Source of the DNA: Candidatus Thorarchaeota archaeon
GTDB taxonomy: Archaea; Asgardarchaeota; Thorarchaeia; Thorarchaeales; Thorarchaeaceae
DNA length: 16,122 nt
Direction: 5' to 3'
Assembly: GCA_011364905.1 (NCBI GenBank)
Contig: RDNZ01000054.1
Coordinates: 1 to 16,122, forward strand
Part shown: positions 8,353 through 15,256 of the stretch, one piece after another
How the letters are laid out: each line of letters starts with the position of its first letter
Numbering within the stretch: the first letter of the stretch is position 1
Notes under the pieces: generated by a model
Database searches by the model: none
Told to the model about the DNA's origin: nothing
Seen by the model: only the letters and a program-made list of their open reading frames with translations
Position numbers and translations under genes: made by a program

Positions 8353-8793
8353 TCATTGTTCCTCATGTTTGATCAGATTGTCTAGAACCCTCTCAAGGAA
8401 TGTTTCAAACTGATCTATCTCTTCAGGCTGAAATCCTTTGTAAAACACGTTTGTCATTTCAACAGAAACCTCGATGTAGACGTTGAGCATTTTTCTGGTT
8501 TTATCAGTCAGTACAACCAGTACTTTTCGTCTGTCTTCATCAGATTGGACCCGTTTCACATGGCCATCACTCTCAAGATTGTCTAACAATTCGCTCAGTG
8601 TCGACTTTCTGAGTAGTGTTTTCTTAATCAGCTCTTTTATTGGAACCCTGTCCTTCTCCCAGAGAGTAAACAGAATCCTGCCTTGTCCTGGGCCTATGTC
8701 GAGACCTCGCTCCTTGAGAAGGTCTGAGAAGACTCTTCTTCCAAGATGATGTATTTGCGTTACTAAAAAGCCGCCCCTTCTCTGAGACATCAT
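8353..8793 (-). CDS. MarR-family transcriptional regulator
   Basis: GQGRILFTLW, KSTLSELLDNLE, wing motif DEDRR; ATGA overlap with the upstream gene at 8790-8793. Confidence 0.92.
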   Translation of the reverse strand: MMSQRRGGFLVTQIHHLGRRVFSDLLKERGLDIGPGQGRILFTLWEKDRVPIKELIKKTLLRKSTLSELLDNLESDGHVKRVQSDEDRRKVLVVLTDKTRKMLNVYIEVSVEMTNVFYKGFQPEEIDQFETFLERVLDNLIKHEEQ

Positions 8794-9413: not shown

Positions 9414-9719
9414 ATGACCGAATCCAGATATGAAGAAGTGCAACAATCAGCAAGACGAGTTCTAACTGAACTTGGCCTTCCTGATCAGACGCAGAAAAGA
9501 TGTTTTTCACTACTGAATGACAGAAGAACAAAAGAAATTTTGACTGAGAAGAATGTAGATGGAATCATTGCAGGCGCAATCTACATCGCTGCAATTCTGA
9601 CAGAGAACCGACTTCCACAGCATCAACTCACTGAAGTTATGAACATCTCTGCAGCAACAATTCGCAAGTACTATGTAATGTTAGTCAAGCTACTTGAGTT
9701 GAAAAAGAAGAAAATTTAG
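9414..9719 (+). CDS. Stand-alone TFB/TFIIB-like cyclin-box (single repeat) protein
   Basis: ELGLP...IIAGAIYIAA...RLPQHQLTEVMNISAATIRKYY matches the TFIIB repeat pattern including its HTH. No Zn ribbon and no second repeat. Confidence 0.8.
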   Translation: MTESRYEEVQQSARRVLTELGLPDQTQKRCFSLLNDRRTKEILTEKNVDGIIAGAIYIAAILTENRLPQHQLTEVMNISAATIRKYYVMLVKLLELKKKKI

Positions 9720-13699: not shown

Positions 13700-14305
13700 A
13701 TGATGAGCTCCAGAAGAGAATACTTTGATGAACCACTTGTCAAGGTCGATTTTCTGAAGGTTCACTTTCCCAAGATTTGTCCTGTCTGTGGTGCTCCAGC
13801 CACGAAGTATGCTCTTTTGAAAATTGCCAAGAATGGTAAGCAATCTCTAAGAAGATCCTGGGACTATAGCTACGCTCTTTATCCAAGACATGAGATGGGA
13901 AATAGATTCTCAGAGATGAAAGTTCTACCAATACAGGTATGTGATAACCACGCCCATCCGGACGATGGCACTGATAGGTATCAGACTCTCTGCTTAATAG
14001 TCGATGGTTTGCTCATAGTTCTTATGATTTTTAGTTTCCTAATCATTGGAGATAGAATTTCAAGGACACGACCAATTCCGTTCTGGTCATATCTATACAT
14101 ACTTCTATTCGTGGTGGCAATTCTATCAACAAAAATAGCATTTAGGCCAAACGCACTCGAACGGGCAGTGAGAATCATTGGTTTTGACCCCGGGATGCAG
14201 CATGTTTTGATTTTGTTCAGGCGCACAGAATACCGGGAGCAATTCCTACTTGAGAATCAAATGAATGCAGAACTAGTAAACTGGATTACGCGCATAAATG
14301 ATTGA
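13700..14305 (+). CDS. Membrane protein with N-terminal CPxCG Zn-binding module and two TM helices
   Basis: FPKICPVCG plus distal VCDNH (likely C3H ligand set); hydrophobic segments LIVDGLLIVLMIFSFLII and FWSYLYILLFVVAILS. Confidence 0.8.
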   Translation: MMSSRREYFDEPLVKVDFLKVHFPKICPVCGAPATKYALLKIAKNGKQSLRRSWDYSYALYPRHEMGNRFSEMKVLPIQVCDNHAHPDDGTDRYQTLCLIVDGLLIVLMIFSFLIIGDRISRTRPIPFWSYLYILLFVVAILSTKIAFRPNALERAVRIIGFDPGMQHVLILFRRTEYREQFLLENQMNAELVNWITRIND

Positions 14306-14322
14306 GAGAGACGAGATTGATA

Positions 14323-14367
14323 AAAATCAGCAGGAAGTGCTCATGTTGCTTCCAACGCAAGCACTTC
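14323..14367 (-). terminator. Hairpin over the stop of peptide C followed by a U tract
   Basis: Minus strand GAAGTGCT-TG-c-GTTG-gaag-CAAC-a-TG-AGCACTTC (14367-14334), then CTGCTGATTTTT. Extra G-U pairs favour the minus strand. Confidence 0.45.
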
Positions 14368-14454
14368 AGTCACAGAGAGGGCGCTACCATCTCTGGTCTT
14401 GTTATTCTGAGCCTCATTCGAGGATTTTTGTGCCGACGAGTCTGCCTTAGCCAC
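14341..14454 (-). CDS. Microprotein C, 37 aa (not in ORF track)
   Basis: GTG start; MAKADSSAQKSSNEAQNNKTRDGSALSVTEVLALEAT*. SD AGGAGGT (14463-14469) embedded in the end of ORF B. Confidence 0.5.
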   Translation of the reverse strand: MAKADSSAQKSSNEAQNNKTRDGSALSVTEVLALEAT

Positions 14455-14460
14455 TCAGGT

Positions 14461-14556
14461 CTACCTCCTGAAGTAGCTACGAGCGATCGCGTCAGTCGAC
14501 ATTCTCTTTCTGAGATGAGTTTCCATGTGTTGTTTCTCAACATTAGCAAGAGCCAT
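14461..14556 (-). CDS. Microprotein B, 31 aa (not in ORF track)
   Basis: MALANVEKQHMETHLRKRMSTDAIARSYFRR*. SD GGAGGT (14563-14568) embedded in the end of ORF A; resembles ORF A. Confidence 0.65.
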   Translation of the reverse strand: MALANVEKQHMETHLRKRMSTDAIARSYFRR

Positions 14557-14560
14557 GAGA

Positions 14561-14662
14561 TTACCTCCGATAGGTGTAGGCATAGGTCAGAGCAAAGGTC
14601 GAGACCTTCGCTTTCTCGTTCTTCAGCACAGATGTTGGTCGTGAGTTAGTTGTTAGAGCCAT
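14561..14662 (-). CDS. Microprotein A, 33 aa (not in ORF track)
   Basis: MALTTNSRPTSVLKNEKAKVSTFALTYAYTYRR*. TATATATA at 14695-14702 about 33 nt upstream (short or no leader); resembles ORF B. Confidence 0.6.
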   Translation of the reverse strand: MALTTNSRPTSVLKNEKAKVSTFALTYAYTYRR

Positions 14663-14694
14663 GATATTTCACAAGAAATAGTACTCAGATTTAG

Positions 14695-14749
14695 TATATA
14701 TAGCGAAGCCACTTGAGAGGGTCACAGGACGAAGTCACATATTGTGACT
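14695..14749. promoter_or_regulatory. TATA box plus perfect palindrome AGTCACA-TAT-TGTGACT
   Basis: TATATATA 14695-14702; 7-3-7 inverted repeat 14733-14749; extra GTCACA half-site 14721-14726. Confidence 0.45.
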
Positions 14750-14872
14750 ATCAACAACTCTTCAAGAACCAGAAGAAAACTGGCTTCAACTATCAGAATG
14801 TGTGTATGACTAGAAAGAAAGCGCTGATGGGCCGCTTGAGTACGACCCTTTTCCAGCTAATATTGAACTAGT

Positions 14873-15256
14873 CTATTTGAGCTTGAGTTGAGTCTCACTC
14901 TTCCAAAGACCATGAATATTGCAAAGTGATGTAGCCATCAGTGTACCTGGTTTAGTGGTCTTGAAGACGAAGTGCGCAACGGGTTCGCTAAAGACGCCAC
15001 TGGTGTCAGGTCCTTGTGCGGACGCGCCATGACTGTCATATGAACAGTAGCCTATCTCATACGGAAACTTCTCTCCATCAGGCCATAGGAAAAGATCTAT
15101 CCATTTTATGTGGTGCGCTGTTGTATTTGGATGCGGAATCTCCTTGCCAACAGTCACCGTGACACTGACCTTTCCATCTTTGATTTCTTCTATTTCAATA
15201 ACAGGAACGTGCTTCTCGCTCTTCCAATCTGCGGTTTGCAACCATTTTTTCGACAT
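14873..15256 (-). CDS. sor: Superoxide reductase, neelaredoxin (1Fe, class II) type
   Basis: EKHVP, PHPNTTAHHIKWI and CNIHGLW iron-ligand motifs; no desulforedoxin domain; GAGGT SD. Confidence 0.95.
   Translation of the reverse strand: MSKKWLQTADWKSEKHVPVIEIEEIKDGKVSVTVTVGKEIPHPNTTAHHIKWIDLFLWPDGEKFPYEIGYCSYDSHGASAQGPDTSGVFSEPVAHFVFKTTKPGTLMATSLCNIHGLWKSETQLKLK

Follow-up and report, generated by a model that had tools for sequence, protein, structure and literature searches.

Several kinds of described systems resemble the locus analysed here in part. Multi-peptide leaderless bacteriocin operons (aureocin A70, garvicin KS, enterocin L50/DD14; PMC6131525) and the staphylococcal psm-alpha operon contain several tandem ORFs of about 20-35 codons, each with its own ribosome-binding site, whose cationic products lack any signal or leader peptide, are overlooked by gene callers and are expressed from one regulated promoter, sometimes together with a transporter. 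Small-molecule-sensing leader (arrest) peptides that block termination, such as TnaC, SpeFL and PepNL (PMC8450073; bioRxiv 10.1101/604074; PMC11890864), and probably also the leaderless Cys-rich attenuator sORFs of mycobacteria, are short ORFs located upstream of regulated genes, including transporters. Termination-reinitiation coupling, in which the Shine-Dalgarno (SD) sequence of one cistron is embedded in the preceding one, is known from archaeal and bacterial operons (PMC12548453), and archaeal proteins of fewer than 50 residues that act as stand-alone gene products have been surveyed in Haloferax (PMC10117724), although none of the characterised ones is reported as a multicopy, SD-chained three-gene operon with a fixed operator, nor is there any sequence relation to them. 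Asgard archaea are the closest known relatives of eukaryotes, yet their genomes are annotated almost without genes shorter than 50 codons.

The window analysed here is a 16,122-nucleotide stretch of contig RDNZ01000054.1 of a Candidatus Thorarchaeota archaeon (GCA_011364905.1), an uncultured organism represented by a MAG. In its apparently empty 567-nt gap between a 201-aa Zn-ribbon membrane protein (13700-14305, plus strand) and SOR (14873-15256, minus strand), three chained smORFs lie on the minus strand at 14341-14662: A at 14561-14662 (ATG start, 33 aa), B at 14461-14556 (ATG start, 31 aa) and C at 14341-14454 (37 aa). Their starts are 106 and 102 nt apart. The last codons of A (CGG AGG TAA) and B (AGG AGG TAG) provide the GGAGGT located 7-8 nt before the next start, so that the SD of B (GGAGGT, 14563-14568, minus strand) and that of C (AGGAGGT, 14463-14469, minus strand) are formed by the last Arg codons and the stop codon of the preceding cistron; the same arrangement is seen in the orthologues and paralogues that were read (an anti-SD check gave nothing, since the 16S 3' end is absent from this MAG). 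The initial annotation, which had proposed a duplicated, translationally coupled peptide cassette with a TATA box in front of A and a hairpin plus U tract behind C, is supported in its core, with the corrections that C starts with GTG, not ATG, that the B frame is also open from an upstream ATG at 14583, a by-product of the Y-A codons of A, and that the hairpin does not follow C but overlaps its end. It could not be seen from the sequence alone that the unit is multicopy, that it is restricted to one archaeal family, that it carries a fixed operator-promoter and that in other copies the last cistron is an MFS transporter.

The layout is not a matter of chance. The whole 419-nt unit recurs at 92% identity on another contig of the genome (C11), and its promoter together with the 5' part of A recurs on two more (C78 and C17). 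Using transketolase as the anchor, we found the cassette at the same position, about 1.5 kb upstream of this gene, in at least 8 Thorarchaeota species (L033, L035, L036, L037, L041, L044 and L059, and L043). Frames, starts, SDs and stops are conserved in these relatives, though some B-type ORFs lack a canonical start (CTG or an overlapping GTG in L044, and ACG or an upstream ATG in L043). In-frame pN/pS is 0.54 for A, 0.44 for B (pS 0.71) and 0.71 for C, against 0.87-1.18 in shifted frames, and there are 0 in-frame stops (in 10 orthologues in the case of A) against 11-32 in shifted frames (16-32 in the case of C). A paralogue on contig C23 keeps the A-B-C layout, the SD chaining and the T-tract at only 27-61% amino-acid identity to A, B and C of the window. 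The three ORFs are therefore under purifying selection and are genuine genes, although C is only weakly constrained outside its C-terminus, which is also constrained as RNA.

These data largely refute the reading of the locus as a repeated non-coding RNA or mobile-element end, or as a site where the real gene is the 115-codon plus-strand ORF at 14302-14649. In favor of this reading, the unit is repeated four times in the genome, the transcript folds slightly better than shuffles (z = -1.95), and a long antisense ORF exists here and on C11. However, the antisense frame is open only in these two places and is broken by 2-6 stops in the C23 paralogue and the seven orthologues, substitution patterns are codon-like in the three named frames only, and diverged paralogues keep the ORFs but not the nucleotide sequence. 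No Rfam hit was obtained at gathering score, the only one at E<=1 being a snoRNA model at 17.5 bits against a cut-off of 50, which we take as chance, and no tRNA was found. The repeats lack transposase or terminal-repeat context and sit at conserved chromosomal positions.

A and B are paralogues belonging to one previously undescribed family of basic microproteins of about 30 residues (type 1; M-A-L ... S-T-D-A-L-x-Y-A-Y-x-Y-R-R-stop), recovered by the family profile with E-values of 9e-17 and 3.6e-14, respectively. The family was found in 24 of 24 genomes of the genus and in 77 of 85 genomes and 15 of 16 genera of the host's GTDB family; in a further comparison, the profile hit 70 of 76 genomes of this family, with up to 13 copies each, and 0 of 224 genomes from 29 other Asgard families. 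Only 53 hits were obtained among 1.84 billion protein representatives. Stop-to-stop frames of the hits are mostly 29-42 codons long, with a few of up to about 75, and the copy number of the unit varies from 1 to 3 per operon. Pfam, NCBIfam, PHROGs, PADLOC and PDB sequences gave no hits, the ESM Atlas gave no usable hit, and our literature searches for Asgard or Thorarchaeota small proteins found no description of the family. Type-1 products have a median charge of +5 (about +5 for A), GRAVY of -0.62 and one predicted helix, which AlphaFold2 placed over residues 10-31 of A (pLDDT 73), leaving the N-terminal third unstructured. The caution of the initial annotation that the terminal RR may only reflect the SD is partly right, since the two overlap; even so, the motif in front of it (S-T-x-A-L/I-x-Y/H-A-Y) is conserved at the protein level with synonymous variation. 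C represents a second, acidic type (type 2, median charge -2) ending in E-V-L-x-L-E-A-T; in C itself the N-terminal part is acidic or polar and variable, while the C-terminus E-V-L-A-L-E-A-T is conserved.

The cassette is preceded by a fixed operator/promoter module. A perfect operator-like palindrome AGTCACA-N3-TGTGACT (14733-14749, minus strand), expected 0.10 times per window by chance, starts 87 nt upstream of the start codon of A, and is followed by a third half-site TGTGACC at -64 (14720-14726, minus strand) and by a BRE-like GTGGCTTCGC plus a TATA box TATATATA at -40 (14693-14712, minus strand, the TATA box being at 14695-14702). The palindrome and the third half-site occupy the same positions in 44 of 57 loci from several genera, and a TATA-like element lies at about -38 to -41 in most of the 57 loci, including all these 44. 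The genome contains three TBP matches in two genes, whereas a scan for bacterial promoters and terminators was uninformative, the host being archaeal. From the archaeal TATA-to-start spacing of about 26 nt we infer that transcription starts within the conserved CTTGTGAAATATC, leaving a short SD-less leader of about 8-10 nt (14663-14672, minus strand). The same operator and TATA box precede an MFS gene without peptides (contig C45), a bactofilin-like gene (C10) and a membrane protein (C32); this module, with or without type-1 cistrons, drives two kinds of MFS transporter genes. We infer that the palindrome binds a dimeric repressor or activator, so that the operon would belong to an inducible regulon shared with efflux pumps; however, no regulator has been identified, and a MarR gene at 8353-8793 is 5.5 kb away, with nothing linking it to the other copies.

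The last cistron is of type 2 in 33 of the 57 loci and an MFS transporter in 11, and type-1 ORFs were never seen in this position. We consider it somewhat more likely than not, in the absence of expression, TSS or peptide data, that the locus encodes a stoichiometric intracellular basic/acidic peptide module of an efflux-linked inducible regulon. The link to MFS pumps suggests a stress or export function. Ribosomes terminating on A and B would re-initiate on the next cistron, giving roughly equimolar A, B and C; in comparison with the known cases of such coupling, the stop codon likewise lies 4-9 nt from the next start, and stop and start overlap in some orthologues (GTGA in L041 and L044), but the coupled cistrons are themselves only 31-37 codons long, and the SD is supplied by conserved terminal Arg codons that are also part of the protein motif. 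Having no signal peptide or membrane segment, the products probably stay in the cell, where the basic type-1 helices probably act together with the last-cistron product, which would neutralise (acidic type 2) or export (MFS) them. A complex between types 1 and 2 is suggested only by charge complementarity and coupled translation. A evolves about as slowly as transketolase (94% identity to its L035 orthologue, against 82% for transketolase), which fits a conserved cellular partner. Among the functions offered by the initial annotation (regulatory peptides, precursors for enzymes encoded elsewhere, small basic nucleic-acid binders), the precursor option is the least supported.

The consistent location of type-1 ORFs upstream of something else on the same strand fits equally well cis-acting leader peptides, whose translation would gate the last cistron, and we cannot exclude this possibility, although we regard it as clearly less likely. 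The 13 residues just before the stop codon, which would sit in the exit tunnel at termination, are the best conserved (though their terminal RR doubles as the SD), the SD of the next cistron lies under a terminating ribosome, the first cistron has almost no leader, and the size of the ORFs (27-36 aa) is that of TnaC (24 aa) and SpeFL (34 aa), which block termination in response to a small molecule (PMC8450073; bioRxiv 10.1101/604074). Efflux and resistance genes of bacteria, moreover, appear to be often controlled in this way. On the other hand, two or three near-identical sensors in series would be unusual, the only "cargo" in most loci is another tiny, weakly conserved peptide, the N-terminus (M-A-L-T/A-x-N) and the basic character of the middle part are conserved too, a stalled ribosome would hide rather than expose the next SD, no alternative RNA fold was found, and we know of no archaeal precedent. 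A still more speculative, and in our view unlikely, version is that each type-1 ORF stalls its ribosome at the stop codon in response to a metabolite or xenobiotic through the conserved S-T-D-A-L-x-Y-A-Y-x-Y-R-R segment, two or three of them in series forming a translational gate for MFS efflux pumps and the type-2 peptide alongside the operator-controlled promoter; this would extend nascent-peptide sensing to archaea.

It is less likely that the peptides are leaderless secreted products (a multi-peptide archaeocin, a PSM-like peptide or a signalling peptide) with the MFS pumps as exporters and type 2 as an immunity or helper peptide. The tandem cationic ORFs with their own SDs and without hydrophobic N-termini do recall aureocin A70 and garvicin KS, a shared regulated promoter would suit density- or stress-controlled secretion, and seven of the 11 MFS transporters are of the MFS_3 "secretion effector" type. 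However, type-1 peptides are hydrophilic, with a low hydrophobic moment (0.25) and one predicted helix, and lack the amphipathic, hydrophobic-core helices needed for membrane action (PMC6131525); there is no sequence similarity, no transporter lies next to this copy or most others, and no ABC transporter or immunity gene was seen. The family is also near-universal, syntenic and slowly evolving within one archaeal family, while bacteriocins are typically patchy and fast-evolving. Even more doubtful is a role as RiPP precursors with a Tyr-rich C-terminal core and modifying enzymes encoded elsewhere, in spite of the many scattered copies per genome, the conserved Tyr/Arg-rich C-terminal motif and the occasional MFS exporter: no radical-SAM, YcaO, lanthipeptide, ATP-grasp or peptidase gene was seen next to the cassettes whose neighbours were read or scanned against Pfam, the neighbours (SOR, the Zn-ribbon membrane protein, GNAT, YbaK, a methyltransferase and HTH proteins) differ between loci, no Pfam or NCBIfam precursor family matches, and the conserved C-terminus with a variable middle part reverses the usual pattern of a conserved leader and a variable core.

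One more interesting feature is a conserved RNA hairpin (10 + 4 bp; 14334-14367, minus strand), present in the MFE structure and built from the last 8 codons of C, its stop codon and the next 7 nt, and followed 8 nt later by a T5 tract (14322-14326, minus strand), an archaeal termination signal; T5-T8 tracts lie at the same place in most of the 31 aligned loci. Over these loci 86.9% of cells are paired, against 45% or less with slid partners, and 18 cells have changes on both sides, against 5.4 in shuffles. Compensatory GTG/GCAC to GTA/GTAC changes occur, and Leu CTC/CTT covaries with the second base of the stop codon. RNA covariation was found only here, where it coexists with codon-level conservation (the Thr codon before the stop uses all four ACN codons across the 31 loci), making this a clean natural case of dual RNA and protein constraint at the 3' end of a gene.

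Finally, apparent B-C fusion proteins of about 70 aa, with Q at the position of the TAG stop of B, were retrieved. All of them come from single ENA contigs of 0.5-1.6 kb, and one also reads a second TAG as Q; we interpret them as gene calls made under a TAG=Q table, not as natural fusions. In the window, the stop codon of B is followed in frame by a TGA.

On the minus strand, the 567-nt gap between a convergent gene for a Zn-ribbon membrane protein (13700-14305, +) and a superoxide reductase gene (14873-15256, -; Desulfoferrodoxin, E 2.5e-27) holds the three small ORFs proposed in the initial annotation: A at 14561-14662 (ATG start, 33 aa), B at 14461-14556 (ATG start, 31 aa) and C at 14341-14454 (37 aa), the latter having a GTG start rather than ATG. 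The starts are 106 and 102 nt apart; A ends with CGG AGG TAA and B with AGG AGG TAG, so that a GGAGGT lies 7-8 nt before each following start. The convergent gene encodes a 201-aa protein with an N-terminal CxxC...C Zn-ribbon (a weak rubredoxin-like match) and a membrane segment; it matches no Pfam family above the cut-off and is the conserved convergent neighbor of the cassette in many relatives (loci L014, L018, L022, and L026). A MarR-family regulator gene (8353-8793, -) and a 101-aa ORF matching a single TFIIB repeat (9414-9719, +) also lie in the window, but no link between them and the cassette was found. The genome is a 3.08-Mb, 81%-complete MAG, which carries TBP genes and whose transketolase is 69-83% identical to those of 'Candidatus Thorarchaeota' MAGs; the host is therefore an Asgard archaeon, and the interpretation of the upstream element as a TATA box is appropriate.

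The unit is repeated in the genome. Positions 14336-14754 of the window recur at 92% identity on another contig, C11, while the promoter and part of A recur at 89-91% on contigs C78 and C17, where different sequence follows. Within the genome, only the promoter and the 5' part of A (14576-14750 against C78 and 14613-14750 against C17) stay about 90% identical between loci whose downstream parts differ. The synonymous divergence of A between species is lower than that of B (pS 0.41 against 0.71), which fits either extra nucleotide-level constraint on the promoter-A module or gene conversion among copies. A search with a peptide HMM revealed two further, much more diverged loci, namely an A-B-C cassette on contig C23, which has only 27-61% amino-acid identity to A, B, and C of the window but the same SD chaining, ORF lengths and T-tract, and a single peptide on contig C47. 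In total, 12 ORFs of the family comprising A and B (type 1) were identified in six loci of this genome.

Several lines of evidence show that the ORFs are coding. The cassette sits at the orthologous position, about 1.5 kb upstream of the transketolase gene and on the same strand, in the related loci L033, L035, L036, L037, L041, L044, and L059, and it also occurs in L043. In codon alignments of these orthologues, the in-frame pN/pS is 0.54 for A, 0.44 for B and 0.71 for C, whereas frames shifted by 1 or 2 nt give 0.87-1.18; no in-frame stops are present, against 11-32 in the shifted frames, and the third codon position is the most variable. An alternative candidate, the 115-codon plus-strand ORF that overlaps the cassette, is open only here and on C11, being broken by 2-6 stops in the C23 paralogue and in the orthologues. 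Rfam and tRNA scans found nothing of note.

A and B are paralogues of one family, type 1, with 27-36 residues, which begins with M-A-L-(T/A)-x-N, has a variable Lys/Arg/Asn/Thr-rich middle, and ends with (S/T)-T-(D/E/F)-A-(L/I)-x-(Y/H)-(A/S)-Y-x-Y-R-R. Its median net charge is +5, GRAVY is -0.62 and the hydrophobic moment is 0.25; AlphaFold2 with the 49-sequence alignment predicts one helix over residues 10-31 at moderate confidence (pLDDT 73). C represents a second family, type 2, with a variable, polar and net-acidic N-terminal part and a conserved end, (L/I)-(S/T)-x-x-(E/D)-V-L-x-(L/M/W)-E-A-T. Neither type matches Pfam, NCBIfam, PHROGs, PADLOC, PDB chains or the ESM Atlas, and we found no description of these families in the curated libraries or in the literature searched. 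A profile search of 1.84 billion protein representatives returned only 53 hits, almost all of them 29-73 residues long. Seven proteins of about 70-90 aa from the public protein collection (P0006, P0010, P0018, P0022, P0027, P0039, and P0047) consist of type 1 and type 2 joined by Q exactly where the TAG stop lies. All of them come from single ENA contigs of 0.5-1.6 kb and are probably gene calls made under a TAG=Q table rather than natural fusions; B and C are in frame in most cassettes, which follows from the SD-to-start spacing.

The type-1 profile hits 24 of 24 genomes of the genus, as well as 77 of 85 other genomes and 15 of 16 genera of the GTDB family, with up to 13 copies each. In a phylum-wide draw, it hits 70 of 76 genomes of that family, while it was not found in any of the 224 genomes searched from 29 other Asgard families, although absence in incomplete MAGs does not prove absence. 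A evolves about as slowly as the neighboring transketolase, their identities to the L035 orthologues being 94 and 82%, respectively.

In 44 of 57 loci, drawn from this genome, its congeners and five other genera, the first type-1 ORF is preceded by the same module at fixed distances: the palindrome AGTCACA-N3-TGTGACT at -87 (14733-14749 in the window), TGTGACC at -64 (14720-14726), GTGGCT(T/C)CG followed by TATATATA at -40 (14693-14712), and CTTGTGAA at -17. With the usual archaeal spacing, the transcript should start about 8-10 nt before the ATG of A; in this case A would be a short-leader cistron without an SD, while B and C would be SD-led internal cistrons. The same operator palindrome, a TGTGRCC half-site and the TATA architecture also precede a 505-aa MFS gene without any peptide ORF (locus at 7985-9614 of contig C45), a bactofilin-like gene (locus at 61472-62070 of contig C10) and a gene for a 362-aa membrane protein (locus at 20024-21254 of contig C32), which suggests a wider regulon under one unidentified regulator. 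In contrast, the diverged cassettes of the C23 type (C23, 19525-20928, and loci L119, L121, L133, and L139) use a different promoter (AAACCTTATAT). Across genera they are paired divergently with a gene for a 250-280-aa protein that has a weak HTH_20 (ArsR-like) match and is a candidate local regulator, and a Zn-ribbon plus UbiE-type methyltransferase gene lies convergent to them.

The last eight codons of C, its stop codon and the next 7 nt form a 10 + 4-bp hairpin (14334-14367, -), which is followed by a T5 tract at 14322-14326; the C-terminal motif E-V-L-x-L-E-A-T of the type-2 peptide and its stop codon make up the 5' arm and the loop. In an alignment of 31 loci, 86.9% of cells are paired, against 45% or less when the partners are slid. 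There are true compensatory changes, as Val GTG pairs with GCAC and Val GTA with GTAC, and the third base of the Leu codon covaries with the second base of the stop codon (TGA against TAA/TAG). At the same time, the Thr codon before the stop uses all four ACN codons and the Leu codons in the loop vary synonymously; the peptide end is therefore constrained as protein as well as RNA, a clear case of dual constraint. This is the only place where RNA covariation, raised in the initial annotation as an alternative to codon conservation, applies, and here it adds to the coding interpretation rather than replacing it.

The expression logic of the unit (an operator-controlled promoter, the short-leader cistron A, SD and termination-reinitiation coupling to B and C, and a hairpin/T-tract end) is well supported, although it is still inferred from sequence, in the absence of expression or peptide data for this uncultured organism. 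As to the peptides themselves, whose function is open, we favor the view that they are trans-acting intracellular microproteins made in fixed proportion, in a regulon shared with efflux pumps, and that the last cistron would partner, neutralize or export the basic type-1 helices. The arguments are as follows. The whole peptide is conserved, not only the tunnel-proximal part; the family is near-universal, syntenic and slowly evolving; there is no signal peptide or membrane segment; and most operons have no larger gene to regulate. However, the possibility that type-1 ORFs are leader or arrest peptides, comparable to TnaC and SpeFL (PMC8450073; bioRxiv 10.1101/604074), is a serious rival, considering the conserved residues next to the stop codon, the position of the next SD under the terminating ribosome, the link to efflux pumps and the fact that in our sample type 1 is never the last cistron. 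The analogy with leaderless bacteriocins or PSM peptides extends to the form of the operon (PMC6131525) but fails on amphipathicity, fold, adjacent transporter or immunity genes, and evolutionary pattern, while a RiPP-precursor role lacks any linked enzyme next to the cassettes whose neighbors were read or scanned against Pfam.

Type-1 ORFs number one to three per chain, and the chains differ in their endings, though the sample of 57 loci was drawn from best hits and is not unbiased. Of these loci, 33 end in a type-2 ORF, plus two or three with a degenerate one, 9 have other or unclear endings, and 4 are cut by contig ends. Eleven are followed by an MFS gene. In seven of them, a 446-aa MFS_1/MFS_3 (PF05977) protein starts within about 6 nt of the last type-1 stop; in one more (locus L115), an MFS_3-type gene follows with its first ATG about 180 nt on; and in three (four by the automatically assigned label), a second MFS type lies 200-600 nt downstream. 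In MFS-linked operons (loci C17, 31757-32224, and C78, 67765-68115), the first type-1 peptide ends with Y-A-Y-(L/M/I)-T-V-(V/T)-R instead of Y-x-Y-R-R and is followed by a spacer of 140-250 nt, which holds further GTGAC/GTCAC motifs and a possible third kind of small ORF that overlaps the stop (GTGA).
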